Of a stretch of DNA of 64,000 nucleotides, positions 24,720-55,600 are shown piece after piece. The position numbers and the translations under genes are program-made. Numbering within the stretch: position 1 is the stretch's first letter; each line of letters opens with the position of its first letter. The DNA is from an uncultured archaeon (lineage in GTDB: Archaea; Asgardarchaeota; Heimdallarchaeia; Heimdallarchaeales; Heimdallarchaeaceae). The stretch is from contig CAZHRF010000013.1 in assembly GCA_964534625.1 (NCBI GenBank), positions 1,612-65,611 on the forward strand, written 5' to 3'. Under the pieces are notes generated by a model, which had not been told where the DNA came from, did no database searches, and saw nothing but the letters and a program-made list of their open reading frames with translations.

Positions 24720-24748
24720 ACACATGTAAAAACGTAATTGTGTGAAAG

Positions 24749-28834: not shown

Positions 28835-28846
28835 AAGGAGAAAAAA

Positions 28847-38780: not shown

Positions 38781-38998
38781 ATGAAATAGTGTTATTTTAT
38801 GGGTTTAAAGAACCTTTTATTACAGATATTTCAGTACTATTATATTTTTTATCATATACTATCTTCAACGAAAGTATTTGAAGACAACAATTTTGTTAAA
38901 AATAACTTTAAGAATTATAGTAATACCTAATTATTTTTAAAAGAAAAATAAGCGGATAGGGTGATTTTAGGAGTATACTAAAACTATAAAATAGACTT

Positions 38999-40024
38999 TT
39001 AGTCTTGTGGTGGCCAAGGATCATATGGTTTTATAAGGGCAATTTTTCTTATAGTAACCCTCTTGATAATACCTAGATCATCCATTAAACCTATGTAATT
39101 TGATATTCTCTGATGATTGTTCAAGAAACGTATACCTAAGAAGTTGCTTTCGTCAAATCCTTCTTCTATATATACTTCTTTGATTTTTTCTACTATGTCC
39201 TTGTTGGAAATAACTTGATCATCACAAGGATTGAGATTCTTATCTAAGCAATGTTTGAAAATTGCTCTCCAGATAATTTCTATAGGTTTTTTGAATATTT
39301 CATAGATAGTTTTCTTCATTCCCCACATATTTTGTTCATGTTTTAAAGCTAGGATTCTTTTAGAGAGATTTGTAAGTCTATTTTCAAAATCGATGAAACC
39401 ATATTGATATAAAGTTAAAAGAAAATTAACTCTTATGTGTTTTTCATTAAATTTAGTTCCATCATCCTTAAGCACCCCATTTTGAATACGTTCCGTTATA
39501 TAATGTGTTTCTAGTTCTTCTTCAGATTTTTCAAACTCTTCTTCCTTAATTACTTCTAAAATCTCTAATAATCTATCAATAGAGTTAATACCTTCATTAA
39601 AGAACACCCCTTGAACCATTATTTCTTTTTCTTCTTCTAAATTTTTAAGTTCCTTTTTTGCATCTTCTAGCGTTAATTCTCCGCCTTTCTTGTCTAGATA
39701 GAATATGTCTATTTCATCTGGTAAAGCTAACTTTGTTAAAGATACTAAACTATCTTGTGGTATTAAAAACACTACCTTTCCCTTTTTCAATTTGTCATTC
39801 TTATTTCTAAGGTGTTGATATTGATAACATTGTCCGATACCCCGAACAATATCAGTAAGACCAACTGAACCTTTGCACTCAATAAGAAAATCTGCTTGAT
39901 CATTTTTAAAGGCAACAACATCAATTATTGGACCTTGATATATGACAGGATATTCTTCATGAATATCATAGCCTTTTTTCTTATAATATTTTATGGCGGC
40001 ATTTTTTACGGTTTTTTCAATCAT
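38999..40024 (-). CDS. PD-(D/E)XK nuclease-like N-terminal domain fused to a helical/wHTH-like C-terminal region (candidate restriction or reader component)
   Basis: GPIIDVVAFKNDQADFLIECKG provides the D...ExK core. The gene lies between the DpdA-like genes and the methyltransferase on the same strand. Confidence 0.45.
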   Translation of the reverse strand: MIEKTVKNAAIKYYKKKGYDIHEEYPVIYQGPIIDVVAFKNDQADFLIECKGSVGLTDIVRGIGQCYQYQHLRNKNDKLKKGKVVFLIPQDSLVSLTKLALPDEIDIFYLDKKGGELTLEDAKKELKNLEEEKEIMVQGVFFNEGINSIDRLLEILEVIKEEEFEKSEEELETHYITERIQNGVLKDDGTKFNEKHIRVNFLLTLYQYGFIDFENRLTNLSKRILALKHEQNMWGMKKTIYEIFKKPIEIIWRAIFKHCLDKNLNPCDDQVISNKDIVEKIKEVYIEEGFDESNFLGIRFLNNHQRISNYIGLMDDLGIIKRVTIRKIALIKPYDPWPPQD

Positions 40025-40077
40025 AAGAAGAATGGTGTGAAAATTTATTAAAATATTATGGCAATAAAATATACCAT

Positions 40078-41256
40078 TTATAAATATTGTAATATTTTAC
40101 TCTGTCTAAACTTCCTTTTTCGTTGTCCATATTTAAATAAAGAAAAGTATTGACTGTTCTTTAGATTTATTTCCAAGAATTCTGCATACTGTTTATTGGC
40201 TATTTTATTTAATGCCCGATGATTTTCTTTCATGAATACATAAGCATTATGTATTGCTCTTAACTTAAAGCTGTCATTTATTTTTTTTAAAGAATTATTT
40301 TCATGAATGCCACAATTACATTTCTTGAATTGTTCTATTTCCAATTTTGATAATTTTGGTCTATTTTTTCTTGCAGGACTAGGTAGAATAAATCTGTCTC
40401 CAGTCTTTGGCAACTGTATTGCACCAAATGCTGCTTTTAATCTCCAGCCCATGGAATCAATTGAATCGACTCCCAAGGCAAACATCAGATGCATCGTTGA
40501 GGAGCTTCCAATTCCAAAAACATGGAGAAATTTATCAGGAAATCTTTTTCGAACATATTTGATTGAATCTATGATAAATTGTTGAGTAGTATATTCATTG
40601 GATATTGCAAAACCGCTTTCAATTCCTATTTTTTTCGTTTTTTTTGCTGATCTTATTAGAGGTACTAAACTTCCTATACCTATAACAGGTGTGTCATAAC
40701 AAGCTAAACAATCACAAAAATGTTTTATTTCTTCCTTTGTATAACCATGGATAATGGGCATTATATTATTAAATTCTTGACTCATTAATCCCCAATTGTC
40801 CAATGATTTTTTGATATTAAACTTTCTTTGAGTTTTATTTTGATTCGGACCTAATGGTAAATCTAAACTAGCTAGTAAATCTGGTGAGGTTTTCTTATAG
40901 ATTTCTACAACTTCTTCCAAATTGATTTCAAAGTCTTGATTTTTCTGGATCAAATACCCACCAGAATCCATAAATACAATTCCATCAAAATTTAAAAAAG
41001 CATGAATATTTGAATCAAAGATTTTTTGTTTATGCTTTATTGATTTAATTATTTCATAAGCATTAATCATTAAACCTTGGATGTTTTTTTCTTTACCTTG
41101 TTCTCTAAAATAAACCCAAGGTTCAGGTTTTCCATTAAGTATTGTACCATGGAACATGATGGGAGTTTTTACTATTTTTGATCCAATTTTGAGTTTGCCT
41201 GTTCTAGCTTCTGTTTTTTTATCCTCATTATTTACAGTAAAACTAATTTTTGTCAA
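40078..41256 (-). CDS. TGT-family transglycosylase without PUA/tRNA-binding domains (DpdA-like), paralog 1; TTG start
   Basis: Collinear with the ArcTGT catalytic core: GKLKIGSKIVKTPIMF, GIVFMDSGGYLI, IIHGYT, GIGSLVPL, LHVFGIGSSSTMHLMFALGVDSIDS, and zinc site CNCGIH...IHNAY. Confidence 0.75.
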   Translation of the reverse strand: MTKISFTVNNEDKKTEARTGKLKIGSKIVKTPIMFHGTILNGKPEPWVYFREQGKEKNIQGLMINAYEIIKSIKHKQKIFDSNIHAFLNFDGIVFMDSGGYLIQKNQDFEINLEEVVEIYKKTSPDLLASLDLPLGPNQNKTQRKFNIKKSLDNWGLMSQEFNNIMPIIHGYTKEEIKHFCDCLACYDTPVIGIGSLVPLIRSAKKTKKIGIESGFAISNEYTTQQFIIDSIKYVRKRFPDKFLHVFGIGSSSTMHLMFALGVDSIDSMGWRLKAAFGAIQLPKTGDRFILPSPARKNRPKLSKLEIEQFKKCNCGIHENNSLKKINDSFKLRAIHNAYVFMKENHRALNKIANKQYAEFLEINLKNSQYFSLFKYGQRKRKFRQSKILQYL

Positions 41257-41322
41257 TATTCTTTCCTAGCTACATAAAAGATATTAATAAAGCAAAAAGA
41301 AAAAATGTGCAAAAATAGTTTG

Positions 41323-42492
41323 TTAGACATAGCTTATAAGTTTAGTCTGTTTTTGAGATTGATTTAGACTATATTTAAAGAGTTTTTTGTAAATAGTTCG
41401 TTCCAATCTTTTATTAACAAAACTTTTGTAGTTTTCGTTAGTAATTGCTTCTATTGCTTTGATGTTTTCCTGTAGAAATATATATGCATTATGTATTGCC
41501 TTAGGTTCAAAAGTTACATCAATATAATCATAATCATATTCTTGATGAATGCCACAATTACAATCATTGAACCTTCTTTTTTGTTCATTAGAGAATATGG
41601 GCCTATTACCTCTTTTCCCATCTAAGTCGGAAAGAAACCTGTCAGCTGTAAAAGGGAGCTGTACTGCGCCATAAGCTGCTTTTAATCTCCAGCCCATGGA
41701 ATCGATGGAATCTACTCCCAAAGCAAACATCAAATGCATTGTTGAAGCACTCCCAATACCAAAAACGTGAAGCATCCGTTCAGGAAATCTCTTCCTTACA
41801 TAATTAATAGAATCAACGACAAAATGTTTACTTTTATACCACTTCTCATCTGAAAATCCACTATTCTTACCAATATGTTTTGTACCATTGGTTGATCTCA
41901 TTAGAGGAACAAGACTTCCTATCCCTATAACAGGACATTCATAAGATTCTAAGATGTCACAAGCATTTTTTAATTGTTTTTTAGTATAGCCATGAACGAC
42001 AGGAACTATGTTTGGAAAAATTTCGTGCATTTCTTCATAATTTTTCATGGTATTTTTCCAATTTTTTTGGTTCTCTTGATAACTTTTTTCAGGAGAAAAT
42101 GGATGATCCAAGGAAACAAAAAGATCTGGATCTGACTTTCTATAAACCTCTAAAACATCTTCGACTTCAATCTCAAAATCTTGTTTTTTTTGGATTAAAT
42201 ATCCACCTGAGTCCATAAATACAATTCCATCAAAATTTAGAAAATCATGTATATTGTTTTCAAAAATAGTTTTTTTATGCTTAACAGATTTGATTATTTC
42301 ATATGCATTTAACATTAAACCGCGTATATTTTGCTTTTTACCGTGTTTTTTGAAATATATCCATGGTTCGGGTTTTCCATTAAGTATTGTGCCATGGAAC
42401 ATGATTGGGGTTTGAATTCTTTTATTACCAATTTTTAAAGTTCCCTTTCTAGCAGCAGTATCGTCGCATTCTTTATCAATCTTGAAAGACAT
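41323..42492 (-). CDS. TGT-family transglycosylase without PUA/tRNA-binding domains (DpdA-like), paralog 2
   Basis: Has the same motif set as paralog 1 (GTLKIGNKRIQTPIMF, FMDSGGYLI, VVHGYT, LHVFGIGSASTMHLMFALGVDSIDS, CNCGIH...IHNAY). Confidence 0.75.
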   Translation of the reverse strand: MSFKIDKECDDTAARKGTLKIGNKRIQTPIMFHGTILNGKPEPWIYFKKHGKKQNIRGLMLNAYEIIKSVKHKKTIFENNIHDFLNFDGIVFMDSGGYLIQKKQDFEIEVEDVLEVYRKSDPDLFVSLDHPFSPEKSYQENQKNWKNTMKNYEEMHEIFPNIVPVVHGYTKKQLKNACDILESYECPVIGIGSLVPLMRSTNGTKHIGKNSGFSDEKWYKSKHFVVDSINYVRKRFPERMLHVFGIGSASTMHLMFALGVDSIDSMGWRLKAAYGAVQLPFTADRFLSDLDGKRGNRPIFSNEQKRRFNDCNCGIHQEYDYDYIDVTFEPKAIHNAYIFLQENIKAIEAITNENYKSFVNKRLERTIYKKLFKYSLNQSQKQTKLISYV

Positions 42493-42578
42493 TGAATATC
42501 TTTTCCTCTTTTCAAGAGAATATAATTTATCCCATATATAAGGATAACATTTATTTTGTTAAAAATTATTAAAAAATC
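42493..42578. promoter_or_regulatory. Divergent promoter spacer between the DpdA-like and PLD genes
   Basis: 86-bp AT-rich spacer. TATA-like tataatttat (42521-42530) and catatataagg (42533-42543) each lie about 30-40 nt from the respective start codon. A small palindrome ctctt-ttc-aagag sits at 42506-42518. Confidence 0.35.
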
Positions 42579-43925
42579 ATGCATCCAATCATTTTGTTTA
42601 ATAACATACATAATGAATATAACTTAAATGAGAAAACTAAAGATTTGAAAGATACTTTATCAAGGAAAATTAAGGAAGGAGCGAAGGAGGATGGAAGTGA
42701 GTTACTTTTTGGAGTTGCATATATTAAAAATTCAGGCATAAATCCCTATCTAAACAATTTTGAACAAATATTAAGTCAGAATGGAAGAATCAAAATATTA
42801 ACTTGTTTTGATTTTGGATTAACCGATCCACTTGCATTGAAAAAACTTATCCAATTGAAAAAATTTGGGGATATCGAAGTTCATTTCTATCAAAATACAA
42901 AAGGTAATTATCATCCTAAATTTTACTTATTTAATACAAATAATAAAAGAGGGGGTATAATAGGTTCAAATAATTTTACATATTCTGCTCTCAATGATAA
43001 TATAGAATTAGCTGTTTTAATTAATGACCAAGAAAGTATTAAAAATTTGGAGAGTTATTTTTATTCACTATGGCAAAAATCAGTTAATATCAATGCTGAA
43101 ATTATTGATGAGTATTCAACAAAATATAACAAGCTACAAATAGAACGAGAAAAAACAGAGAAAGAAATGAAACAATTAGCTGAAAGTTTTGAAGAAAGAG
43201 TAATAAGTGACCCCATAGATGAAGAAGAAATAGAAACCATAATATCACAAATCAAAGCTTATTTTAATATTCCCTCTGGCTTGCTTTTTTGGAGAGATGT
43301 GGCTCCTGATGAAGTAGGTACATTATTGTATTATTCTTCAAAAGAAGAAGATTTTGATGCAAGAGAATTTGTAATAGATTTGATAAGAAATGACTGTCTT
43401 CATTATAAAAGTGAGTCATCAATTGGAGCATGGTTAAATTATCGCTTATTTATGGAAACCATAGGTTATTGGGATGATTATGGACTAACAAAATGGGGAA
43501 AAATTGCTCTTGATGAATATAGAAAATCAGGACAAGGTTTTTTAGCATTTTTGCAATTCAGCATATTAGTTTCGGGTGAAATTTACAGATTAATTAGTGT
43601 ATTAAATCAAGCAAACAGTGAAATTAAGCACATAATTAATTCTGAAAGTAGATTATTAAAGGGTGAATGGATTGATCTTGTTTATCCAATAATATGTGAA
43701 AAACTGGCAAAATATGGTGCGGATTATGAATTGGGAGAGGAAAGTTTCAAACGATATCTTCCAAGTCTATTTAATAAATTTGGACTGGGGTCATATATCT
43801 ATACAATAATACCAACTGTCTACGAAATCAAAATACATGAAATCTCTCACCAAATTCTCAATTATGGTCAGAAATTCAAATTGAAATCATCGGAAACGCA
43901 AAATGATTTTATTGGCGATCTCTGA
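42579..43925 (+). CDS. PLD-superfamily (single HKD-like motif) nuclease-like protein with a large uncharacterised C-terminal domain
   Basis: NYHPKFYLFNTNNKRGGIIGSNNFTYSAL is an HxK...GSxN motif. The C-terminal ~280 aa are unassigned. Confidence 0.65.
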   Translation: MHPIILFNNIHNEYNLNEKTKDLKDTLSRKIKEGAKEDGSELLFGVAYIKNSGINPYLNNFEQILSQNGRIKILTCFDFGLTDPLALKKLIQLKKFGDIEVHFYQNTKGNYHPKFYLFNTNNKRGGIIGSNNFTYSALNDNIELAVLINDQESIKNLESYFYSLWQKSVNINAEIIDEYSTKYNKLQIEREKTEKEMKQLAESFEERVISDPIDEEEIETIISQIKAYFNIPSGLLFWRDVAPDEVGTLLYYSSKEEDFDAREFVIDLIRNDCLHYKSESSIGAWLNYRLFMETIGYWDDYGLTKWGKIALDEYRKSGQGFLAFLQFSILVSGEIYRLISVLNQANSEIKHIINSESRLLKGEWIDLVYPIICEKLAKYGADYELGEESFKRYLPSLFNKFGLGSYIYTIIPTVYEIKIHEISHQILNYGQKFKLKSSETQNDFIGDL

Positions 43926-44552
43926 GTCACTCAAGTCCTCAATAATGTCATTAATATCGGATAAAGTAATATTCTGACCTTTTTGTGTCTTTGTATAATA
44001 TAAATTTACAAATCTTGATATTGCATCAGAATCGCTGATATTTTCAATATCTATTTGATTATTTTGCATCTGCTCAATGTGTTCATCAAACTGATTTTGA
44101 TATGTTTCTGCATCCAAATTTCTGCTTATTCTAGAATTTGTTAATTTCTTAATTTCCTTGTAAATTCCTTTTAAATTTTTAGCTTTTTTGGTTTTTTCTT
44201 TATCTATTTTGATTTGAATTAAGAAATCTAAGAAAGCTATTTTGTCATCTATAGCTTTAATTATCTCAAACTTAAATGAATTCATTAATCCTTCGGCGTT
44301 TTTAAAGAGATCTTCTACATTTGTAATAAGATCGTCATGTTCTATTTTTTGATGGGATTTCAATGACTCATAATTTTCATATAAATTCTTGAGACTTGTT
44401 TTTTTCCCTATTGCAATTAAAAATTTGGAGTAACATAGACATTTCACTAAAGATTCGTTTAAATCTTGAAATTTTTCTTCTATCTCTCTGGTTTTCTCTC
44501 TATTTAATGACTTTTCAAGTGCTTTAACTAATGACATCATGTATCTCTCCAA
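43887..44552 (-). CDS. Hypothetical helical protein, last gene of the helicase operon
   Basis: Overlaps the upstream gene by 29 nt. Its 3' end overlaps the convergent PLD gene by 39 nt. Confidence 0.4.
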   Translation of the reverse strand: MERYMMSLVKALEKSLNREKTREIEEKFQDLNESLVKCLCYSKFLIAIGKKTSLKNLYENYESLKSHQKIEHDDLITNVEDLFKNAEGLMNSFKFEIIKAIDDKIAFLDFLIQIKIDKEKTKKAKNLKGIYKEIKKLTNSRISRNLDAETYQNQFDEHIEQMQNNQIDIENISDSDAISRFVNLYYTKTQKGQNITLSDINDIIEDLSDSEIANKIILRFR

Positions 44553-47481
44553 TCATTTGTAAGATGTTTTTAGCTTGATTTTGAAGGTTGTCTGATAAAT
44601 CTTCAAAATTTCTATTTATTAGATTAATAATCTCTTTTTTCTCTTCCAGGTTTGTAAACCATTTCCAGAAAATGTAATATTCCATTTCTAAATTGTCTAT
44701 AGAAATTGATACATCTTCTTCAAAATCGTTAAATCCTAAATATTTAAGGTTAGTCTTTAGGTTTTTGAGTTTATTTCTTATCTCTGAAATATTGTCATTT
44801 TTTAAGAATTGTCCGATTTTTACTATTCTTCTGCGAATATCATAGTCCAAGTTCTCTACTAAATTCTTATTTTTGTTATAAATTTCAAGATATTGATTTA
44901 TTTCACCCGGTTCAAGATTTTGGATAATAATATTCATATCTTTAAAATTAAACTTATTTACTTTTTTCATCCTCTCTAATTCAAGATGTAAATCTTTTAT
45001 TGTAAGTAAAAATTCACTTAGAGGTCGATCTGCAAATCGCACTTTATTATCTAAGTTATTTATATTATTTTTTGTAATATCGTAACCAATATTGATTTTA
45101 TTTTGTGCTTGTTCTCTTATATAAGAAAAATCTTCTTCTGATAGTATATTTGCATCGGAAGAAATCTGCTCTAGATAAAGATTAAGTAGAGATTGTACAT
45201 CATCTTTAATGTTATTTCGTAGACTCTTTTTTACTCCTACTATTTTACAGTTTTTAGTTAAATTATTGATGAAATCTTCTTTTTGTTCATCTTCTACAAG
45301 AATAGAGTAAATATCCATGTCTTCAATTTCTTTATGTGGGTAGCTGATTTTAAGAAGAAGATTTAGAAATAAAGATAATGCTTTGTTAATAATATTTGTT
45401 TCCTTTTTATTGGATCTTTTCAAAATGCTAGAAAATTGTTTGTAGTAATAATCTATAAAATCTTGCCGCCAGAATTGGGCATAGGAAAGAAATAAAGGAA
45501 TACCCTCTTCACAAAGTTGCAACTTTTCTTCAAAACTTATAGAACTTTTATCGTCAATTGCACAACCAATAAGGATTATCTTTCTCAGTAAACTCATGGG
45601 GAGAGATTTTTGATCTATAGTGATTTGTAATAAGTCCTTATCTGATTTCTTGTCATTTTCGTGAATTATAGGATATTCATTTTTTCCATATCGATAAGTG
45701 AGAGAGGGTAAGTTTTTTAGTGAATATCCATTAGTAAAAATACCCATGATTTCTTTCATGCCTATTTTAAAATAAGAATTGATGTCTTGATATTTTGTCT
45801 TTAGTTCATTTTGTGTGCTCTCAGACCAAGGAGATATCAATTCAAGAACGTTAACATATTTCTTCTCTAGTTTTTCGATATTGGTTAACTCTTCTTCAAT
45901 TGTTGAAAAATCTGTCTTTTCAGTTCTCTGAGTTATAGTGTCTGATTTGTATCTTGTCTTACCTTTTTCTGGAATTAGTACTTGGTGATCTCTTCTCTTA
46001 AATTCTTCAATGGATTCTAGATCTAAATTAAAGAAATTGAAATAGTCTTTTTCCAAGGAGAAAAATGTGTTCCCGTTGATGTTATTTTTAGTATAATAGA
46101 AAGAAATGAATCTGCGTAATTTTTCATCATATATTGGTTTTTGAAATTCTAAATAATCCATTTTTAGATTTCTAACTTCCGAAGATTCTGTTGGGGGTTC
46201 TTCAAATTCTAGATAATGTAAAATTGATCTATATATATTCTGTATGAATGTTCTGGGCTTTTTCTCGTCCATCTTGTCAAATAATCTTTTTATAAATGCT
46301 TCATTAGCTGGAAAAAGAACTTTAAATTTATCTGAGGGGCACTTCTGACAATTTTTACAAATATTACCAAACATATCTTGAATGAATTCAAAATATTTTT
46401 TAGCAAAATTAAAGGATGTGTCAGAATTCAAAAATAGAACATTTGTATTTTCTTGTTCATTTGTTCTGAAGAAATGAAACCTATCTCTTCTTGTTGCTTC
46501 TTCTTTAACAATACTAATTATATCTGTAGTACCTGCAATTAAAAAATCCCATCTGTCATCAGGGACATCTCTTTCCATATATTTGAGCAATCTATTCAAA
46601 TCTAATGTTGCAATTTTAAGATCTTCCATAATCATGGCAACTCTTTTATCGATTGAGTTCATATGCTCACTTATTGCATTCATGATTTCCTCAAAACTAG
46701 GAGCACCAAAATGTTCATTTAGATTACTCCACAAATTACTATTAATTTCCTTCAGATATTCTTCATCATTCATCCAATTTTTTGTAGTATGATTATCTTT
46801 CAAAATTTGAATTACTGATTTTAAACTGTTAAACTGATTAATGTCTGAGGATGTGAAAAAATTAGCTTCATAATCAGTAATATAAAGACTACTATCTGTC
46901 CTTATGATATTTCCGATTTTAGTTCCAAATGCTTTTTCAAAAGCATCTATTATTCCTTGTTTGTTTTCGTTTATATCTTCGAGAAAAACATATTCTTCAA
47001 AAAACCTACCAACTATTTGTTTTGCAATGGCGTGTCGTTTATTTGTTTTTTTAAGCTCCTTTTGCAATTTTAAGGCATTGTCACTTTTAGGAAAGCTTGT
47101 TCCAGTTTTTTCTTTATAAAACTCTAGAAGGTGTATTTTCATAGTAGTTAAATCCATATTTTTAGGAATATGAACAACTTCCCATCCCCTGTCTTCTAAA
47201 TCATACACTAATTTAACGCACAACTCAGATTTTCCAGTTCCTGTTTCTCCCTCTATAACAATACATTGATTCCCGGGATGATTATAATTAAAAATGCTAG
47301 CTATCTCGTCTTCGGATACTTTATTCATGTTGTTATCATAAACATATACTTTTGTATGGGTCTTTTCAAACATTTCTCGCAGTTTAGATCGGTTCCCTGC
47401 TGCAACATTGAAAATAGAAACCAAGCTATATTTATTATGTTTTTTCGCTTCTAATAATTTTGGACATTTGAAATTACTCAT
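44524..47481 (-). CDS. Large P-loop NTPase, family unassigned
   Basis: Walker A VIEGETGTGKSELCVKL lies near residue 80 and the remaining ~900 aa are helical. The gene overlaps the upstream gene by 8 nt. Confidence 0.55.
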   Translation of the reverse strand: MSNFKCPKLLEAKKHNKYSLVSIFNVAAGNRSKLREMFEKTHTKVYVYDNNMNKVSEDEIASIFNYNHPGNQCIVIEGETGTGKSELCVKLVYDLEDRGWEVVHIPKNMDLTTMKIHLLEFYKEKTGTSFPKSDNALKLQKELKKTNKRHAIAKQIVGRFFEEYVFLEDINENKQGIIDAFEKAFGTKIGNIIRTDSSLYITDYEANFFTSSDINQFNSLKSVIQILKDNHTTKNWMNDEEYLKEINSNLWSNLNEHFGAPSFEEIMNAISEHMNSIDKRVAMIMEDLKIATLDLNRLLKYMERDVPDDRWDFLIAGTTDIISIVKEEATRRDRFHFFRTNEQENTNVLFLNSDTSFNFAKKYFEFIQDMFGNICKNCQKCPSDKFKVLFPANEAFIKRLFDKMDEKKPRTFIQNIYRSILHYLEFEEPPTESSEVRNLKMDYLEFQKPIYDEKLRRFISFYYTKNNINGNTFFSLEKDYFNFFNLDLESIEEFKRRDHQVLIPEKGKTRYKSDTITQRTEKTDFSTIEEELTNIEKLEKKYVNVLELISPWSESTQNELKTKYQDINSYFKIGMKEIMGIFTNGYSLKNLPSLTYRYGKNEYPIIHENDKKSDKDLLQITIDQKSLPMSLLRKIILIGCAIDDKSSISFEEKLQLCEEGIPLFLSYAQFWRQDFIDYYYKQFSSILKRSNKKETNIINKALSLFLNLLLKISYPHKEIEDMDIYSILVEDEQKEDFINNLTKNCKIVGVKKSLRNNIKDDVQSLLNLYLEQISSDANILSEEDFSYIREQAQNKINIGYDITKNNINNLDNKVRFADRPLSEFLLTIKDLHLELERMKKVNKFNFKDMNIIIQNLEPGEINQYLEIYNKNKNLVENLDYDIRRRIVKIGQFLKNDNISEIRNKLKNLKTNLKYLGFNDFEEDVSISIDNLEMEYYIFWKWFTNLEEKKEIINLINRNFEDLSDNLQNQAKNILQMIGEIHDVIS

Positions 47482-48454
47482 TTTTATCGCCTCGATTTAT
47501 TATCTCAATCCAGTTAACTTTATCGCCAAATTTTGCTTTGATGAATGTAGGTTTCGGTGATACAATAGGGAAATCACCTCTGTTTAACAAATTAATATGA
47601 TCTCTCGAATATAGTAGCCAAAGGGCACTACCCATTGATTTTGTGATAAATGCTTGATATTTATCATCTTGTTGTGTTATTGGAAGAAATTTCTTAGCTA
47701 TTGTATCAATTAAGTTCTTTAGGGGCATTCCTTTGGTTTCTGTTTTGGAATATTTTGAAATTAATGGTCTTAATAAGTACATTATATAGTAAGGATTGAG
47801 TTTTGAAAAGTAATATTTATCCCTTCCATGTTTTACTTCCTCACATAACTCCAGATCTTTTAATATTTCTAATGCATTCCTTAGTTTGTTGTCATTCATT
47901 TCTATTAGTTTCCCTCGACTAGACTCAGGCTTATAACCAATATTATTAAAATATGTGTTAACATCATTAACTGTTTTTTGACTTCTTTTTAAGCCATACT
48001 TTGTATCTTGACTAATTTCCATAAAACTGTAAACTAAAAGAATTGCAGCTTGTTTGTAAAATACATATTTGGAAGTCGGTTCCATTTTAAAAGATATATT
48101 GGCTAAATTTTTAATAATTTCAAAATTTAGTTTATAATCAATATAGCGTTGTAAAGTATCTGTATCCAGTTTTCCCCTTTTTTTTTCTATGATTGTATAA
48201 ATGTCGGAAACTGTTTTTAAAAGATCTTTAGCTAAGCATATTTTGTCATGTTTTTTTTCTGTCATACCCAGTACTCTTAAAAATTCGAGTTTTTCATCAA
48301 TATTTCTTTCTTTATTAGAATGAAACTTTTCTAGAATGCTAGTATGCTCAAAACCGTTTGATTCTCTTCCAAGGAGCATAATAACTTTCCTTATTCCGCT
48401 TACATTGTTTACTTGGTTTAAGAGATATGGTTGATCAAATTCTTCCATGGACAT
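47474..48454 (-). CDS. Hypothetical protein (possible wHTH repeats), helicase operon
   Basis: 326-aa ORF with overlapping ends on both sides. No family recognised. Confidence 0.45.
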   Translation of the reverse strand: MSMEEFDQPYLLNQVNNVSGIRKVIMLLGRESNGFEHTSILEKFHSNKERNIDEKLEFLRVLGMTEKKHDKICLAKDLLKTVSDIYTIIEKKRGKLDTDTLQRYIDYKLNFEIIKNLANISFKMEPTSKYVFYKQAAILLVYSFMEISQDTKYGLKRSQKTVNDVNTYFNNIGYKPESSRGKLIEMNDNKLRNALEILKDLELCEEVKHGRDKYYFSKLNPYYIMYLLRPLISKYSKTETKGMPLKNLIDTIAKKFLPITQQDDKYQAFITKSMGSALWLLYSRDHINLLNRGDFPIVSPKPTFIKAKFGDKVNWIEIINRGDKNE

Positions 48455-49353
48455 ATTAAATTCTTCCTTATTTTTTCTGGTAAAACATTAAAAATTCTCA
48501 CTATTTCATCTACTATGGATTTCTTATTTGGATGTTTATATTCCCAATATATACTTTCGAAATCATTATCTTGATACTTTCTGAGAATTAAATTTGTTAT
48601 TTCTTTATTCTCTTCATTATTTAACTCAAATTGATATTTGAAATTTCTAGCTATTGCAGTTATGATATTTCCCTTGTTTTTTACTTTTTCTCTATCTAAA
48701 CTATTAATATATTCCATAATATTGTAGAAAATTGGATTCATTTCCTCTTTAATAGCATATATTATCAATTCTTTAACTGTATCGAACTTTTTATTGTCAA
48801 TTTCATTAAAAATATATGCCAGATTATTCAAGAATAAATTTTGTGTTTGAGTGAAATCTAATTTCCAGTTGTAATTTTCTTTAAGCGTTTTAACTATTCT
48901 CTGATACATTTCAGTGTAATAAGTAAAGTAATTTTCATGAAATAACTCTGTTTCTTTCACTGGTCGTACAAATCCCGATAAGGTTTTTTTACACGCATCT
49001 TGTTCATTCAGAACAAATAGGTAATCATGTTTTGCTGATATTAAGATTTTATGTATTGCATAATCAAAAGAATAATCGCCATATCTTGATTTTGAAATCA
49101 TACAATATTTCTGTTCTGATCCTTTATTTTCTTCCAGAATTTGATCAATATGAACAAATTCGTGTGGAATTGGAGTGAACTGTTTGTATTTCTTAGAAAT
49201 TTTTCTCCATCCTATAGGATAGGTGAAATCTTTAACTCCGAGTAGTTGTAAGATGGGTATTGATCTTAGAAGAGATCCAATGTTTTCTTCAATTATTAGA
49301 ATATATTTATTTGACTTAATCTTGTTTGTGTAATAATCAATGAAATCAGTCAT
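48418..49353 (-). CDS. Hypothetical protein, helicase operon
   Basis: 311-aa ORF that overlaps the helicase gene by 8 nt. No family recognised. Confidence 0.45.
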   Translation of the reverse strand: MTDFIDYYTNKIKSNKYILIIEENIGSLLRSIPILQLLGVKDFTYPIGWRKISKKYKQFTPIPHEFVHIDQILEENKGSEQKYCMISKSRYGDYSFDYAIHKILISAKHDYLFVLNEQDACKKTLSGFVRPVKETELFHENYFTYYTEMYQRIVKTLKENYNWKLDFTQTQNLFLNNLAYIFNEIDNKKFDTVKELIIYAIKEEMNPIFYNIMEYINSLDREKVKNKGNIITAIARNFKYQFELNNEENKEITNLILRKYQDNDFESIYWEYKHPNKKSIVDEIVRIFNVLPEKIRKNLICPWKNLINHIS

Positions 49354-52300
49354 AATATGTTTTCTCCAATACTCTTTTGACTACTTTACGATCTAACAAG
49401 TCATTTTTTATTATAGAAACAGGTGTTCTCTCTATTAAGACACACCTTTTGCAAAACTTATCACAATTATCACAATTAACAACAGAATTAACATTAGCTA
49501 GAATTTCATCAATATTCTTATTAACAGAATCCGCTATCCCATTCCCACCTTCACAATTGTCAACTATAGAGAGTCTGATAGATTTCTTTGTGTGTGTGGA
49601 AACAATAGTAAAATCATTGAGATCACAACCAAGGATAACTGAGATTGATTTCTTTAAAGCTTGTTCAAATGTAGATTCAAATATAGCTAATTTTCTTTTA
49701 TCTGTTGCATCTCTCTCTTCTTTTGGCTTATTGATGATTTCATTTATTGGAAAATCGAAAGTAAACGATTTGGTATATACATTGGTTCCTACTGGAACAT
49801 ATGTTCTTTTTAGTTGTTTGGTTCCACCTTCAAGAGCTTCTAACAAATTATCTAAATCTTCTTCTGGTTCAAGTTCTTCTTCTAATGTTTCAGAGGCTAT
49901 ATCTTCATGTATTTCGGCTTGGGAAGGTGAATCTGTCCAATCACTAGAAGCTCTGAATCTATAAGAAAACGATGGTACAAATGTAACCAGATTAGCAGTG
50001 GAAACAAATTTTGAAGAACTTATGTTGTTGCCAATCTTTAGCTCCTCTTTTTGAGGTTTCTCATAACTAATGTCTTCTATTATGAAAGGTGAAGATTTGT
50101 AGCCGAGATTCGATGGTAATCTTTTAATTTCAATACTTTCAGGTGCGTAAACATTTAATTCTGTGAGTTCATTATCACATAGTACACACTTATCAAGATG
50201 TTTTTCAGCTTTCAATTGATAAAAGTCACATTCTTTATTATCGCATATTTTTGTTTGAAGAATCTTTTTAGATGCGTATACTTTATTTGTAATATATGGA
50301 GTCATAGAAATGAGTTGAGAACCACCACTATACCGTCTCCCCGTTTTTTCGTAATTGTTATTCATATAACCAGGATAATTTTCTTTAATAGCATCCAGTA
50401 TTGATTTTTCATCAAATATCTCATTTTTCATTTTTATTGGTATATTTTGTACAAATCCTCTATAATTGGCTAAATAGCCTATTTTATTTAATATATTACT
50501 GAAAAACCTATAGTCTTCTGCTAATTTGTTTTGAGAGCTTTTAGAAAGTCCTCTCATCTTTGCATAATAAGAGAAGAAATTGTTTGTTCGTTTTAGAATT
50601 GAATAATCATTGTTTTTGTCAAGTATTCTTAGAAGAAGATTTTTAGCTGTATCTCCAAAACATTCAGAAATAGTTTGCTCGATTTCCTTCATCTTTTTAT
50701 CTTCGATTAATTTAGTGAATGCTTTGACCCTGATTTGGTTTTGACTTATAAATTTCCTCAGAGAAACATTGGCAAAAGGAGTATCCCATATTTTTTTGTA
50801 GATGTCTTTAAGATCATAATTTCTTGCTAAGTAGGTAGCTATTAAGGTAATTATATGGGAAGCATAAACTACCTCTACATCCTCTTTTTCTGGGATTCCA
50901 ATTTTTGGTATAGAGTCAAAATATCTTTCTTCTAATCTATCAAAATAATAATCATCGATGGCATTACCAGCCTTAATAAATGTTACAATAATTGATGATT
51001 TTCCTCCACTTCTTCCTGCTCTACCAGCTCTTTGAATATAATTTGCAATACCTGGTGGAAGTCCCACTAAAAAGATTGTATCTAAGTCCCCAATATCAAT
51101 TCCCAGCTCAAATGTAGTTGTTGCGGATATGGCGTTCACATCAGGTTTTGTACTTTTGAAATTATCTTCTATTACACTTCTAAGTTCCAAAGGTATACCC
51201 GCTCTGTGCACATTAATAGCCAAAGTATTTTCAGCCTCTGTGGTGGCATTGATTTGCTTCGCCCAATAGTCATTAACAACATTTGCTGGTGTTTTCTGGC
51301 CTAAAAATCCCCCATTTTTGGATCGATTTCCAGAAATGAATTCACCTTTACACAAAGGACAAATCTTGGTTAAAAAATTTATGGCGGGAAAAGCTTTCTT
51401 GCAAACTTCACAAAGATTAACTTTAGAAACTTTCTTCAAGGTGAAATCGTGTTTTTTTGCCTTAATTTTTCCCTCTCCTTTGTATCTCGTTGTAATTATA
51501 CCATAACAATCCTTAGGGATTTGAAATTCTATGGGGTCAAACAATTCTTGTAAACTTTTAGTTTGAATCTCAAAATAATCCTTTAGTGGGGCTCTGTCTT
51601 TTTCATGGGCATTAGACTCTATATTTGTGTTTATAATAGTCCTCTTGATAAAGGTTATAACATTATTTTCATAAAGGTATTTGATTACATATGGGAGTTC
51701 TTTATCAAGTATGTGACGCTTAATTTTTAGATTAAATTCTCTTATTTTTTCTAAAGTAAAGCCATCAAATTTGACTTTATGTCTGCTGAATTTACCCCCT
51801 TTTAATAACCTTTTCAGTATAGTATGACCAATTATAGCTTGGATATCATTTTCACTTTCTGTTAAAATACATTCTGCTGTGATTAGACTGCCATCAAACA
51901 ATATGGTAGCCGAATTTAAATTTGGAAGATGTTTTAACTCCGACTCTCTAAATTCTTTCCATTGCTTTCTACTAGCATAATCTCTTAAGGAATCCAAAAT
52001 TGGTTTATAGTATTTTTTATCAACAAATTGGATTGCTTTACCCCATAGATCATATGATAATAAAGGTTCTTCTAGGAGCTCAACCATTTTCCTTTGTGTT
52101 GAAATTTGATAGTCATTAGAAACAAAATCATGTCCAATTCTTTCAGCTAAATTTCTACTGTCTGCGAATATTAAAACTTTCTTTGAAGGAACTTTTCTTC
52201 CATAGACGGACAAGAATTGACTTAATAACTGGGGATGATATATTGTACCATCCTTTGTTTGATAAAATCTATTTAGACCACTTCCACATCGAGGACAATC

Positions 52301-54091
52301 TTTACTTACGGGTTCATCAGTTTTGAAATCATATCTAAGAGATGTATCTGTTTCCTCTTCTAGAAAGAAGTGTGAAGTGTAGAAAATATTATGACAAGTT
52401 GAACAAAAAACCAATTGTTTATCTATGTTATTGTTACATTTTGGGCAAATTTTCTTACTTGTTATACTTTTACAATTATCACAATAATATATTCCATCAT
52501 TTCCTCTTATGAAATAATGAAGCCTGTCTTGCAGTAAGCCTGCAATGCGTCCTATTGTTAATAAGGACAATAAAAGAGTTGTTTTATCTTCAAGAGAGAA
52601 AGAAGAAGGAAAACCAATTTGTTTATCAAATTGTTTTATTAGATCATCTAACAGTGTAAATTTGATTGGTTTTTCATCATAAGAAGATAAAATATCCCTT
52701 AAGTTAATTATTACTGGAATATTCATCTCAACATTTTTTCTAAAAAGATTTTTTAACCAAGGTGAACTCATAAACTCTTCATACGAAAGATCTGGAGCAT
52801 TTTTGTTTATATTAAGGATAATTTTTTGTTTATCGGTGTTAAAATTGCATAAGGAAAGAATTTCTAATAGTGAAAATTTATTCTTGTTCTTCTGAATGAA
52901 ATTAACATCTGTAATTCTTTCTTTCTTTTCTGTTACTAATTTATGATAAAATTTCAAAGCTTCTTCAGGTTTAATTATTGGAAATCTATCGATATTGACT
53001 TCTTTTGAACCTCTATATTCGATTTTTTCTGGTTCAAAGCTAATTGAGATGTTTTTTCTTTGAGTAATTTTCTCTCCAAATGAAGCAGGTTCTTTTAAAG
53101 TTGCAGATACGATAAAAGTTTTCATATCTCGACCAAAAAAATACCTTAATCTTTGACAAAGTAAACTTATTGCTGTACCTGAAGCTCCTGTCCAGTAATG
53201 AGCTTCATCAAAAACAACATATTTTACATTATCATTCAACATTTCTTTGCCTATAATCTTCTTTTTGTATTCTATAGGATCTATAGTTAGATAGTCAAAA
53301 GCTTCAGGATTTGTTAGAAGTATATTAACTCCAGTAGTTATGGCTTTTCTAGTTGCTTTAATCCAGAGAGAAACAAAATCACATTCAGAGCAGTATATTT
53401 GTTCCCCGAAAGAAATTCTTAGTTTGGATCCACATTCGGGACATTTAATACCTCTAATTATACTATCCGCTTTAATAGTATTTCTATCTTCATTGGACCC
53501 TACTTTATATTTTGTGTCCCCATCCCATATACCTATAGTGATGGGGTTTTGAGGGAGTTCGTTGTTTATTTCGTTAACGTAACGTATGATTCTGTTAAAC
53601 TGATCTACTGCTAATGTTTTAGTTGGATAAAAAATAAGGGACTTCAAATCTTTATTGTCTGCTTTAACACATTCATCCAAAATAGGTAACAAAAAAGCTT
53701 CTGTTTTACCTGAGGCAGTAGGTACAGATAAAGTGAAATCGCAATTATTATTCTTGAAAACCTCTTCAACAAATCCACTCTGGTGTTTATATAGACGTCT
53801 GTTTCTTATTCCTTTAAATAATGTTCGTTCATATGCTTTTTTAACTGAAGTATGAATATCCTGTTTTTCGCAAAAAATATCAAAATCATCTTTACACAAG
53901 GCGGATTTTGCAACATATTCTATATATGGACCTTTAATCTCAAAAAGCTCTTCTTTTAGAAAATCCCTTGCATTTGTTATATCTTCTCCACCTAATCTGG
54001 ATAAGGCTCGGTTCCAAATAAAAATCTCCCTAAGTTCATCCAATGAATTGTTGAATACTTCTATTGTTGAATAATTTCCCATTTTAGTCAA
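49346..54091 (-). CDS. Giant SF2 DEAD/DEAH-box helicase with multiple inserted zinc ribbons and a C-terminal DUF1998/MZB-type domain (DruE/DrmAB/MrfA-like)
   Basis: Motif I VPTASGKTEAF, motif II VVFDEAHYW, motifs V-VI ATTTFELGIDIGDLD...QRAGRAGRSG. CxxC ribbons include CPECGSKL...CSECDF, CDNCKS...CPKCNN, CPRCGS and CEVC...CPLCKG. The C-terminus reads VDNCEGGNGIADS...CDNCDKFCKRC. Confidence 0.8.
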   Translation of the reverse strand: MTKMGNYSTIEVFNNSLDELREIFIWNRALSRLGGEDITNARDFLKEELFEIKGPYIEYVAKSALCKDDFDIFCEKQDIHTSVKKAYERTLFKGIRNRRLYKHQSGFVEEVFKNNNCDFTLSVPTASGKTEAFLLPILDECVKADNKDLKSLIFYPTKTLAVDQFNRIIRYVNEINNELPQNPITIGIWDGDTKYKVGSNEDRNTIKADSIIRGIKCPECGSKLRISFGEQIYCSECDFVSLWIKATRKAITTGVNILLTNPEAFDYLTIDPIEYKKKIIGKEMLNDNVKYVVFDEAHYWTGASGTAISLLCQRLRYFFGRDMKTFIVSATLKEPASFGEKITQRKNISISFEPEKIEYRGSKEVNIDRFPIIKPEEALKFYHKLVTEKKERITDVNFIQKNKNKFSLLEILSLCNFNTDKQKIILNINKNAPDLSYEEFMSSPWLKNLFRKNVEMNIPVIINLRDILSSYDEKPIKFTLLDDLIKQFDKQIGFPSSFSLEDKTTLLLSLLTIGRIAGLLQDRLHYFIRGNDGIYYCDNCKSITSKKICPKCNNNIDKQLVFCSTCHNIFYTSHFFLEEETDTSLRYDFKTDEPVSKDCPRCGSGLNRFYQTKDGTIYHPQLLSQFLSVYGRKVPSKKVLIFADSRNLAERIGHDFVSNDYQISTQRKMVELLEEPLLSYDLWGKAIQFVDKKYYKPILDSLRDYASRKQWKEFRESELKHLPNLNSATILFDGSLITAECILTESENDIQAIIGHTILKRLLKGGKFSRHKVKFDGFTLEKIREFNLKIKRHILDKELPYVIKYLYENNVITFIKRTIINTNIESNAHEKDRAPLKDYFEIQTKSLQELFDPIEFQIPKDCYGIITTRYKGEGKIKAKKHDFTLKKVSKVNLCEVCKKAFPAINFLTKICPLCKGEFISGNRSKNGGFLGQKTPANVVNDYWAKQINATTEAENTLAINVHRAGIPLELRSVIEDNFKSTKPDVNAISATTTFELGIDIGDLDTIFLVGLPPGIANYIQRAGRAGRSGGKSSIIVTFIKAGNAIDDYYFDRLEERYFDSIPKIGIPEKEDVEVVYASHIITLIATYLARNYDLKDIYKKIWDTPFANVSLRKFISQNQIRVKAFTKLIEDKKMKEIEQTISECFGDTAKNLLLRILDKNNDYSILKRTNNFFSYYAKMRGLSKSSQNKLAEDYRFFSNILNKIGYLANYRGFVQNIPIKMKNEIFDEKSILDAIKENYPGYMNNNYEKTGRRYSGGSQLISMTPYITNKVYASKKILQTKICDNKECDFYQLKAEKHLDKCVLCDNELTELNVYAPESIEIKRLPSNLGYKSSPFIIEDISYEKPQKEELKIGNNISSSKFVSTANLVTFVPSFSYRFRASSDWTDSPSQAEIHEDIASETLEEELEPEEDLDNLLEALEGGTKQLKRTYVPVGTNVYTKSFTFDFPINEIINKPKEERDATDKRKLAIFESTFEQALKKSISVILGCDLNDFTIVSTHTKKSIRLSIVDNCEGGNGIADSVNKNIDEILANVNSVVNCDNCDKFCKRCVLIERTPVSIIKNDLLDRKVVKRVLEKTYYD

Positions 54092-54578: not shown

Positions 54579-55193
54579 TTAAATGAAAACCTCTTTACCT
54601 GTTTTTTCTTTTCTAAGTGTATAGAACTTATCCTTGAGTGTTTGATTTTTCGTTGGATTTTTAATGCATTTCTGTTCTTCTTCCAAGTCCTCTTTTACTT
54701 TTGATAAAATATTTTTGATTTGGAACCCTTTATCCTTGAGATCTTTGAAAATTTCTTCCATCAACATGATATTTTCCCATTCGTCTTTTTCTAAGTTATC
54801 CATGGTGGCTTTGGGTGGTGGAACTAATAAAACGAGCCGTGCATTAAATTTATCAGCTAACTTAAATTCTTTTTTTTCATCTTCAATATATTGTCTAATA
54901 ATTTTTTCAAATTTGTTTTTTTTATTCCATAGAGCTATTAATGCATCATTGAACGAATGTTTTTTTAGACCATAATCCTGTGTTTTAACTTCATAGACTG
55001 CCACTACTTTGTCATCCCTTACAACACCAAAATCCAAATAATTTCCTCCTTGTTTGAGATGTTTTTGGGGAACAACTTCTTCTATTATAAAATAACCTTT
55101 CTCCTTTGGATATTTTTGTTCTAACCAATATTCAACTATTCTTTCTCCTAAATAACCTCTAATTCCTATACTTCTTCTAACCATATTATTCAC
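54579..55193 (-). CDS. PD-(D/E)XK-like nuclease, hypothetical
   Basis: GYLGERIVEYWL followed by YLDFGVVRDDKVVAVYEVKTQ (D...EVK core). The gene starts 5 nt after the upstream ORF. Confidence 0.45.
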   Translation of the reverse strand: MNNMVRRSIGIRGYLGERIVEYWLEQKYPKEKGYFIIEEVVPQKHLKQGGNYLDFGVVRDDKVVAVYEVKTQDYGLKKHSFNDALIALWNKKNKFEKIIRQYIEDEKKEFKLADKFNARLVLLVPPPKATMDNLEKDEWENIMLMEEIFKDLKDKGFQIKNILSKVKEDLEEEQKCIKNPTKNQTLKDKFYTLRKEKTGKEVFI

Positions 55194-55198
55194 CTATT

Positions 55199-55600
55199 CT
55201 ATATCTCTTTTGAATCTCTTCTTTCTATAAGTTCTAGCACTGAATCTATTATTTCTTCTAGCACTGACGGATCTATAGTTACCAGTCCTGCTTCCCAACT
55301 TTGTCCTGAAGACGAGCTAGGGATAAAATTCATGGACGATACAATAGCTAATGCTCGGTCTATAACTATTATTTTTGCATCAATATAATTATTTTGGTAG
55401 ATTTTAATCCCTTCTTCTCTTAGGTAATTATGATACGCAGTATCATCCTTATTGTCTGGTGGTCTCATAACTAAAATTACCGAAGCACCGTTTGTTACTG
55501 CATCTCCTAACGTTTCACTTAAATCTATTTTTCTAATCCAAGGGTTGGCAACGATCCCTTGAGCTTTTGCATTTGCTATAACTTCTAATAACTAAATGGA
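55199..55600 (-). pseudogene. PLD/Nuc-like nuclease remnant (the intact ATG ORF is only 55199-55468)
   Basis: The in-frame extension upstream of the Met reads LLEVIANAKAQGIVANPW...GASVILVMRPPD. The HKD position reads IDAKIIVID...SSMNF (His replaced by Asp). Stop codons precede LLEV, so no N-terminus or start is present. Confidence 0.4.

Follow-up and report, generated by a model that had tools for sequence, protein, structure and literature searches.

We examined a 64,000-nucleotide (nt) stretch of DNA from an uncultured archaeon of the Heimdallarchaeaceae (contig CAZHRF010000013.1, positions 1,612 to 65,611; hereafter, the window), in which five overlapping genes on the minus strand encode a giant superfamily 2 (SF2) helicase of the YprA/MrfA family and four partner proteins, denoted here p2 to p5 in the order of their genes downstream of the helicase gene. 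Together, these genes probably represent the restriction and surveillance core of a Dpd-like defense system that spans approximately positions 37866 to 54091 and belongs to the BRIGADE type, a class that was defined by Bell et al. (bioRxiv 10.1101/2025.09.15.676423, Sept 2025) and is predicted bioinformatically.

The five-gene operon and its products

The coordinates of the five minus-strand open reading frames (ORFs) that had been listed in the first-pass annotation, made from the letters of the window alone, were reproduced exactly (Table 1), as was the overlap at every junction: 8, 37, 8 and 29 nt, from the helicase through p5, under the longest-ORF definition. With first-ATG starts, which are those called on the identical public contig, the proteins are 1578, 311, 324, 985 and 216 amino acids (aa) long and the overlaps become 8, 31, 8 and 14 nt. 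Overlapping or abutting junctions were seen again in approximately 25 related loci that were checked, and because such tight junctions recur, the coupling is a conserved trait rather than a product of chance. The proposal that the five genes form a single co-expressed operon headed by a zinc-rich DUF1998/MZB helicase is borne out.

The helicase contains DEAD (residues 102-176), Helicase_C (956-1029) and MZB/DUF1998 (1475-1551) domains of Pfam; its motif II, DEAH, is located near residue 296, and approximately 600 residues separate the end of the first RecA-like domain from the motifs of the second one. CxxC pairs are found at residues 217/234, 537/549, 563/599, 894/911 and 1540/1547, and an extra cysteine cluster ends with CVLC at 1302. 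These approximately six cysteine-pair modules, together with the DEAD, Helicase_C and MZB domains, confirm the architecture originally described for this protein, with at least five CxxC ribbons, a long insert and a C-terminal DUF1998/MZB domain. The polypeptide ends about 30 aa past the MZB domain and has no fused nuclease.

Among the PADLOC models, the best match to the helicase is DruE1 (2e-54; partial, in four stretches), followed by other DruE models, SngC, BrxH, DpdJ (9e-24) and DrmA; in NCBIfam, there are only sub-threshold helicase matches, with DpdJ scoring 80 bits versus a cut-off of 800. Judging from these profiles, the DruE1 match fits a predicted place of the helicase in the ARMADA/BRIGADE/Druantia branch of YprA helicases. 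The protein aligns collinearly, over its full length, with the helicases of BRIGADE-type haloarchaeal loci, with CxxC pairs inside the insert; the full-length identity is 26-29% to these loci and 50% to low-GC loci, and the range over all related loci is 26-51%. Both the zinc-rich insert and the MZB domain are traits of the family. For DruE, 3'-5' unwinding, five zinc motifs and the requirement for the MZB domain have all been shown experimentally, and by analogy, 3'-5' unwinding is likely shared by the helicase described here.

The canonical bacterial Dpd system consists of dpdA to dpdK (Thiaville et al. 2016; Gedara et al. 2023, PMC10164549). As reference dpd clusters, we used the annotated plasmid clusters of Enterobacter, Nostoc, Agrobacterium and Deinococcus and, from Shinella and Paenibacillus, clusters with partial annotation or none. 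In the comparison of family profiles, p4 is a DpdH homolog, predicted to be a BrxC-like P-loop ATPase: the p4 family aligns with DpdH over 455 columns (hhalign probability 99.5%, E 1.4e-22), and 10 of 15 family members directly match the DpdH model of PADLOC (best E-value 2e-10). The Walker A motif GETGTGKS that had been read from p4 is present and invariant in 25 of 25 relatives, and the family also shares an invariant acidic pair, E286-D287, possibly in the Walker B region; a CxxCxxC motif is conserved as well, and the C-terminal half is long and helical. The Pfam matches of p4 are weak P-loop, STAND and AAA matches around the Walker A motif only, and a PDB profile search with the p4 family returned nothing meaningful.

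The p3 family aligns collinearly over 217 columns with a profile of five DpdG sequences (hhalign probability 91.7%, E 7.7e-7); the probability was only 13.7% with profiles of two or three sequences and reached the higher value after the addition of Agrobacterium, Deinococcus and Shinella sequences. The p3 gene lies directly upstream of that for the DpdH homolog, as dpdG does in the canonical cluster. In the annotated Enterobacter cluster, dpdG (291 aa) is followed by dpdH (1068 aa) and an unnamed gene at the dpdI position (282 aa), an arrangement that p3-p4-p5 mirror in both order and size. The AlphaFold2 model of p3 is weak (a pLDDT, or predicted local distance difference test, of 65), and Foldseek detected only local matches to winged helix-turn-helix (wHTH), MarR and SelB domains. 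We assign p3 as a DpdG homolog and, probably, a multi-winged-helix DNA-binding protein.

The other two partners are more elusive. Direct scans of p2, p3 and p5 against Pfam, NCBIfam, PADLOC and PHROGs gave nothing usable, and neither did PADLOC scans of their homologs (five of p2, five of p3, four of p5). Comparisons of p2 and p5, by hhalign, with DpdB, DpdD, DpdE, DpdF, DpdG, DpdH, DpdI, DpdJ, a possible DpdC and several neighboring orphans were all non-significant, and DpdK gave no result against p2 and p5 in a smaller first run. We rejected, as being below threshold and apparently compositional, weak PADLOC matches of p5 homologs (ZorA-tail, MukB-like JetC, LmuB) and, as being below threshold and uninformative, matches of p3 to DUF6035 and NDT_II-A and of p2 to a PHROG tail protein. 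The gene for p2 is present in all 26 loci examined. The AlphaFold2 prediction for p2, made from an alignment of phmmer matches to the p2+p3 concatenate, reached a pLDDT of 81 and a predicted template modeling score (pTM) of 0.85, with only one of five models being good, and shows an alpha/beta domain with helical domains, resembling AAA+ proteins and the clamp-loader delta subunit. The Foldseek matches of this model in the PDB and BFVD are almost exclusively AAA+ proteins (clamp-loader subunits, pol III delta, ORC/Cdc6, STAND), albeit weak ones (E 2e-3 to 5e-2, template modeling scores of 0.2-0.34). The GK[ST] signature of Walker A is missing from 24 of 25 family members, and p2 can tentatively be modeled as an inactive AAA+-like protein. 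As for p5, an ORF of approximately 220-250 aa follows p4 in most loci, with a truncated form of about 100-120 aa in two (L007 and L013).

The partners had been described as four unassignable proteins, three of them (311, 326 and 221 aa) without recognizable motifs. This description still applies to p2 and p5 in the hhalign comparisons and to all three small proteins as far as Pfam, NCBIfam, PADLOC and PHROGs are concerned; it no longer applies to p4, which is DpdH-like, or to p3, which emerges as DpdG-like under profile-profile comparison. The first-pass annotation had named, as an outcome that would refute it, the assignment of all five proteins to a described system, and this is largely what we found, except for the 311-aa and 221-aa proteins, for which there is no sequence-based assignment.

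The partner families are rare. There are 16 matches to the p4 family among 5.8 billion protein clusters and, in a phmmer search of 1.84 billion representatives with the p2+p3 concatenate, 15 matches in total. A word-indexed protein search with p3 retrieved only the query itself, and one with an alignment of the p2+p3+p5 concatenate retrieved nothing.

Related loci and adjoining genes

Related loci were collected from contigs that encode p4 family members and by a scan of one genome per species. This yielded approximately 27 distinct loci with the five-gene block intact or nearly so, from 18 haloarchaeal genomes, one Haladaptatus plasmid, one complete genome of Candidatus (Ca.) Heimdallarchaeum endolithica and, for the rest, metagenome or read-archive contigs, several of them low-GC. 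The layout is the same in every locus, a helicase of approximately 1580 aa being followed by proteins of approximately 300, 280, 980 and 225 aa, save that two loci have a truncated last gene and one has a split p4. The GC content of the window is 29-30%, staying within 27-36% throughout, and the loci most closely related to it are three to four low-GC ones, among them that of Ca. H. endolithica, the nearest one in a named genome.

A tRNA-guanine transglycosylase (TGT) and/or QueC, QueD or QueE is encoded within 10 kb of the block in 19 of the 26 tabulated loci (approximately 18 of 25 after a duplicate Halorubrum tibetense locus is dropped). In the H. tibetense locus, a gene of the Vut_1 family, annotated as queuosine salvage in the Paenibacillus record, lies beside those for QueC/D/E, and L006 contains a gene of the DUF328 family, to which DpdC belongs (PMC12839542). 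Several haloarchaeal and metagenome loci additionally encode a DpdJ-like second helicase (9.5e-55), a DpdK-like small nuclease of the phospholipase D (PLD) family (2.5e-11) and a DNA2-like protein. A common layout of the window, L006 and L037/L038 includes the five genes, with a single YprA helicase, a convergent PLD gene for approximately 430-450 aa, a short TGT and an N6/N4 DNA methyltransferase; in L010, the five genes, the TGT and the methyltransferase were detected, and the PLD gene was not found there.

A version of the full system is plasmid-borne (L031; Haladaptatus sp. YSMS36 plasmid NZ_CP119784.1, 6739-36554). It contains the five-gene block, whose partner genes are all annotated as hypothetical, and a divergent DpdJ-like helicase accompanied by a small PLD. 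Three TGT genes are also present, along with genes for a DUF6884 protein, an 'ATP-binding protein' and a protein of 1493 aa with an AAA domain.

Table 1. Genes and fragments at the locus, in window coordinates
Feature	Position	Strand	Remarks
YprA/MrfA-family SF2 helicase	49346..54091	-	1581 aa as longest ORF; 1578 aa from the likely ATG at 54082
p2, orphan partner	48418..49353	-	311 aa; no family match
p3, DpdG homolog	47474..48454	-	326 aa; 324 aa from second ATG; by hhalign
p4, predicted DpdH-like P-loop ATPase	44524..47481	-	985 aa; by PADLOC DpdH on relatives and hhalign
p5, charged protein at the DpdI position	43887..44552	-	221 aa; 216 aa from ATG
PLD-family (HxK) nuclease	42579..43925	+	448 aa; C-terminal extension of ~270 aa; Pfam PLDc_2 3e-13, NgoFVII N-terminal PLD 1e-11
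TGT paralog 1	41323..42492	-	389 aa; Pfam TGT 7e-23; catalytic TIM-barrel only
TGT paralog 2	40078..41256	-	392 aa; 56% identical to paralog 1; tandem duplicate
Orphan	38999..40024	-	341 aa; between TGT paralog 2 and methyltransferase; membership uncertain
N6/N4 DNA methyltransferase	37866..38780	-	304 aa; Pfam N6_N4_Mtase 6.5e-29
Degenerate PLD fragment	55199-55468	-	89 aa; Pfam PLDc_2; DAK replaces HxK; upstream part lacks a start codon
ORF with D...EVK motif	within 54579..55468	-	201/204 aa; different frame; motif resembles PD-(D/E)xK nucleases; no family match

The system had been thought to end at position 43887, and this boundary did not hold: the PLD nuclease, the two TGT genes and the methyltransferase adjoin the block and are conserved with it. 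The PLD gene is convergent with the p5 gene, the 3' ends overlapping by 39 nt, and orthologs occupy the same convergent position in L006 and L037/L038. Its product matches DrmC of PADLOC (1e-9), and the closest solved structure by sequence is that of the restriction endonuclease BfiI; this nuclease is the probable effector.

The TGT is present in two copies in the window, and both retain the Asp/Asp/Asp/His catalytic set as defined for DpdA, the roles of these residues having been described previously (PMC10164549). Paralog 1 has as its best PDB match residues 9-275 of the 582-aa archaeosine TGT, ArcTGT; as both enzymes align solely to the catalytic domain of archaeosine TGT, the PUA domain and the C-terminal tRNA-binding domains are missing. 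In L006 and L010, the block is adjoined by an ortholog of paralog 1 (61-67% identity), and L037 likewise encodes a TGT. From sequence comparison, paralog 1 is a candidate DNA-guanine transglycosylase, an analog of DpdA. The low-GC TGTs (both copies in the window, 40078-42492, and that of L006, 14938-16137) contain CxCGxH where the TGT of the haloarchaeal plasmid L031 has CxCxxC, a position that we take to be the TGT zinc site; CxCGxH may be a variant metal site. The tandem pair in the window is reminiscent of heterodimeric TGTs.

The methyltransferase has orthologs with 64-75% identity in L006 and L010, an N6_N4_Mtase gene is also present in L037, and this enzyme may supply a second self-mark. 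The 341-aa orphan, for which neither a family match nor a homolog in any related locus was detected, could serve the modification module as a lineage-specific accessory, or be unrelated. On the other flank, just upstream of the promoter region of the operon, the degenerate PLD fragment and the ORF with the D...EVK motif may represent a decayed DpdK-like nuclease and an alternative nuclease, or an accessory; their membership is uncertain.

The window is a defense island. At 55675-59781 (minus strand), it encodes a 1368-aa protein that combines an SLFN/AlbA_2 domain, a NACHT/NPHP3 P-loop and TPR repeats, a STAND-type (Avs-like) defense candidate with a weak match to EruA of NCBIfam, and at 62994-63827 (minus strand), a CBASS-type oligonucleotide cyclase (SMODS; NCBIfam CBASS_cyclase_b 1.5e-36). 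Two orphans next to the cyclase, 60133-61230 and 61548-62201, have no family match and could be effector or accessory genes. The minus strand also encodes, at 35963-37660, an AIPR abortive-infection protein and, at 33966-34370, a TumE toxin, as well as a weakly supported PIN-domain ORF (32800-33240); an AIPR gene follows the five-gene block in L007 as well. On the plus strand, an Eco57I/TaqI-type N6 DNA methyltransferase is encoded at the start of the window (25-1767), and a similar Eco57I-type enzyme is encoded near the block in H. tibetense (L003). The plus-strand genes at 23187-29419 encode an AAA ATPase, an Mre11-like phosphoesterase, a Rad50-like SMC ATPase of 945 aa and, finally, a 190-aa radical-SAM/Fer4_12 protein; the latter has a weak tblastn match to QueE (1e-4) and is either QueE-type or activase-type. 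No tRNA genes are present in the window.

A probable BRIGADE-type defense system and the alternatives

BRIGADE loci combine an ARMADA/Druantia-like YprA helicase with DpdG, DpdHI/BrxC, a PLD (occasionally, PD-(D/E)xK) nuclease, a 7-deazaguanine cluster and, usually, a second YprA helicase; type I pairs an ARMADA-like helicase with a Dpd-like one and has a small PLD, frequently accompanied by a DNA2-like protein, and in type II both helicases are ARMADA-like (10.1101/2025.09.15.676423). The haloarchaeal and metagenome loci recovered here fit the published type I, and the five-gene block of the window is orthologous to theirs. Given the DpdG-like and DpdH-like partners and the PLD, TGT and methyltransferase neighbors, the architecture is therefore that of the BRIGADE class and not of a Druantia variant.

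A mechanism can be proposed in which all steps are derived from homology and gene context. In self-marking, the two short TGTs would swap guanine in the host DNA for preQ0 or a derivative, by analogy to DpdA. Because the window holds no QueC or QueD gene, preQ0 would be supplied by genes located outside it, presumably those of a host pathway such as the archaeosine pathway, which is found in many archaea. The adjacent N6/N4 methyltransferase would add a possible second mark. For surveillance, p2, p3, p4 and p5, which would be made together from overlapping genes, suggesting tightly coordinated expression, could form a BrxC-centered, BREX-like ATPase scaffold that reads the modification status. 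In the execution stage, the YprA-type helicase would load onto unmarked DNA and translocate 3' to 5', and the BfiI-like PLD nuclease would cut the unmarked DNA. The chemistry of DpdA, DpdB and DpdC has been shown in Salmonella (PMC10164549).

Several observations weigh against the assignment to a Dpd-like system of the BRIGADE type. The two TGTs score only 30.6 and 21.4 bits against the NCBIfam DpdA equivalog NF041059, for which the cut-off is 200; they score better, also far below the cut-off, against archaeosine TGT (TgtA), and because they are closer to the latter, they may act in tRNA modification. QueC, QueD, DpdB and DpdC are absent from the window, in which a DUF328 query found nothing, and the sole QueE-like ORF in the window is the 190-aa radical-SAM protein, 14 kb away. 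Among the tabulated loci, 7 of 26 lack a 7-deazaguanine gene within 10 kb, some of these being short contigs. A single YprA helicase is encoded in the 64-kb window, and likewise in L006, L010 and L037, compared to the usual two in BRIGADE. Neither p2, with its weak fold matches, nor p5 has an assignment at the sequence level, and the relationship between p5 and DpdI is non-significant (hhalign P 0.077). The membership of the helicase in BRIGADE was judged by domains, profiles and alignment. BRIGADE itself is a prediction, and the restriction half of Dpd is known from genetics only.

A more specific proposal, which we advance tentatively and consider to be somewhat doubtful, is that the window represents a third, reduced type of BRIGADE in Asgard-affiliated low-GC archaea. 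Under this proposal, a pair of PUA-less archaeosine-type TGTs, possibly a heterodimer, would write 7-deazaguanine into DNA without DpdB, using preQ0 made elsewhere in the genome, with p2, DpdG, DpdH and p5 acting as a BREX-like sensor and a single YprA helicase together with the BfiI-like PLD nuclease performing the killing. If so, the archaeal lineage closest to eukaryotes would have its first 7-deazaguanine-based restriction-modification system, which would also provide a minimal model of the restriction half of Dpd; modification of DNA by the TGT pair in the absence of DpdB would imply a wider range of ways to write deazaguanines into genomes.

The five genes could, alternatively, form an autonomous helicase-based defense of the Druantia/ARMADA kind that senses single-stranded DNA (ssDNA) or replication intermediates of the invader and clears them with no need for a self-mark, in which case the TGTs, the methyltransferase and the PLD nuclease would be separate tenants of the island. 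In its favor, no profile matches the helicase better than DruE1, the activity of DruE-type helicases on intermediates containing ssDNA does not depend on sequence, and L007 carries the block with no TGT in reach; furthermore, neighbors can be coincidental in so dense a defense island as the window, which also encodes CBASS, a STAND NTPase, AIPR and toxins. However, neither the window nor the homologs contain a Druantia partner (DruA-D, F, G, H or M), and two of the partners are Dpd proteins. We rate this explanation as unlikely because the 7-deazaguanine genes track the block over two deep clades, in approximately 70% of the loci, whereas a rough estimate of the chance that any of a handful of housekeeping genes is found within 10 kb is a few per cent, and because, at the end of the operon, the PLD gene and the 3' end of p5 overlap, the PLD gene holding this position in three low-GC loci.

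An epigenetic system akin to BREX, with N6/N4 methylation as the self-mark, p2-p5 as a BrxB/BrxA/BrxC-like core and the TGTs relegated to an accessory or tRNA-serving role, would account for the conservation of the methyltransferase (64-75% identity over the low-GC loci), which exceeds that of the helicase, as well as for the resemblance of p2 to an inactive AAA+ protein such as BrxB and of p3 to a multi-wHTH protein such as BrxA; the equation of DpdH/I with BrxC in the literature points in the same direction. Nevertheless, we regard such a system as improbable: PglZ is absent, as is a PglX-type methyltransferase, the enzyme in the window being a small beta-class N6/N4 one; the tabulated haloarchaeal loci have no ortholog of this methyltransferase and yet keep a TGT or QueCDE; and the likeness of p2 and p3 to BrxB and BrxA is weak, with no solved BREX protein among the top 50 Foldseek PDB matches of either. 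The possibility that the operon is a housekeeping DNA repair module of the MrfA/YprA type, rather than a defense system, derives from the definition of the MZB domain in MrfA, a repair helicase, but appears highly improbable considering that the helicase has the zinc-rich insert architecture of the defense branch, that the partner families are very rare and patchy, as the database counts above indicate, that the block resides in defense islands and on plasmids, and that no MrfB-type exonuclease is present.

Comparison with known systems

The locus resembles the canonical Dpd system in the order of the DpdG-DpdH-(DpdI) trio and in the presence of a YprA-family helicase, a PLD nuclease and a TGT-family enzyme, and it would share the logic of a 7-deazaguanine mark combined with the restriction of unmarked DNA. 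It differs in that DpdB (a ParB-like ATPase) and DpdC (DUF328) were not found among the neighboring ORFs of the window that were scanned; DpdD, DpdE and DpdF are absent from the window, and the only small PLD is the degenerate fragment; the helicase is not a DpdJ ortholog (80 versus 800 bits) and belongs to another YprA branch; the TGTs are of the archaeal type and score below the DpdA cut-off; and there is an additional partner, p2, without a Dpd counterpart. Canonical Dpd was accordingly rejected as an assignment, given that DpdA, DpdB, DpdC and DpdJ, as well as DpdD, DpdE, DpdF and DpdK, were not recognized in the window. Characterization of the Dpd proteins is confined to DpdA, DpdB and DpdC, the modification enzymes, and the locus in the window bears on how Dpd-type systems read the 7-deazaguanine mark and restrict unmarked DNA.

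The composition had originally been called Druantia-like, with the partners not recognizable as DruA-D or DruH. The former characterization is partly apt for the helicase, whose best PADLOC model is DruE1 and which shares with Druantia the giant size, the zinc-rich insert and the MZB domain, but not for the rest of the locus, where there are no Druantia partners and the architecture matches BRIGADE. The latter statement stands: no PADLOC match to Druantia partners (DruA-D, DruM/F/G, DruH) was detected in the window at E <= 0.01 or in the homologs (five of p2, five of p3 and four of p5) at E <= 1. The helicase also lacks the C-terminal Vsr/PLD domain described for DruE, and the gene order and neighbors are Dpd-like. 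Druantia was rejected as an assignment, no type-defining partner being detectable in the window or the homologs. DISARM was rejected as well: the helicase and MZB domains are fused in one protein rather than split between DrmA and DrmB, the DrmA matches are weak and partial, the PLD nuclease matches DrmC at only 1e-9, and no SNF2 helicase DrmD was found.

The combination of a large P-loop ATPase, a small Walker-less AAA+-like protein and a multi-wHTH protein is similar to that of BrxC, BrxB and BrxA in BREX, and DpdH/I have been equated with BrxC (10.1101/2025.09.15.676423); the DpdG and DpdH(/I) proteins together with p2 may form a BREX-like sensing core. The differences are the lack of PglZ, PglX and BrxL and the weakness of the fold matches on which the likeness of p2 and p3 to BrxB and BrxA is based. 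BREX was rejected as an assignment, with no PADLOC model match to PglZ, PglX or BrxC for any of the eight window proteins that were scanned.

BRIGADE provides the closest match. The window encodes a YprA helicase of the ARMADA/Druantia-like branch with a zinc insert, an MZB domain and no fused nuclease, together with a DpdG homolog, a DpdH(/I)/BrxC-like ATPase and, next to the block, a 448-aa HxK PLD nuclease; in BRIGADE, the nuclease comes without a Cas11-like four-helix bundle, and the helicase, unlike that of ARMADA or Druantia, has no fused nuclease (10.1101/2025.09.15.676423). For the 7-deazaguanine cluster, the picture is mixed: two TGTs adjoin the block, QueC and QueD are absent from the window, and related loci carry QueC/D/E or DUF328. 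Apart from the single helicase, the differences include the large BfiI-like PLD nuclease in place of a small DpdK-like one; the two tandem short TGTs and the conserved N6/N4 methyltransferase, with no QueC/D/E cluster nearby; and the host, a low-GC archaeon with a Heimdallarchaeum relative, the class having been stated to be exclusive to halophilic archaea (10.1101/2025.09.15.676423). Table S1 of Bell et al. includes, among its entries, an 'ARMADA Type I helicase' of Ca. Lokiarchaeum ossiferum (UYP44196.1), so that Asgard YprA helicases are represented in that data set.

Thus, the five-gene system is already known as a class, and the copy in the window is its reduced, low-GC layout in a new host group, which extends BRIGADE past the reported host range and will be unsurprising to specialists familiar with the 2025 preprint. 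The comparison across haloarchaea and Asgard-like archaea delineates the constant parts, namely, the helicase, p2, the DpdG-like and DpdH-like proteins and p5. This compact version, in which a single helicase and a single nuclease are combined with four small partners and one or two TGTs, offers a smaller gene set to reconstitute and a useful minimal model of the restriction half of Dpd-like systems.

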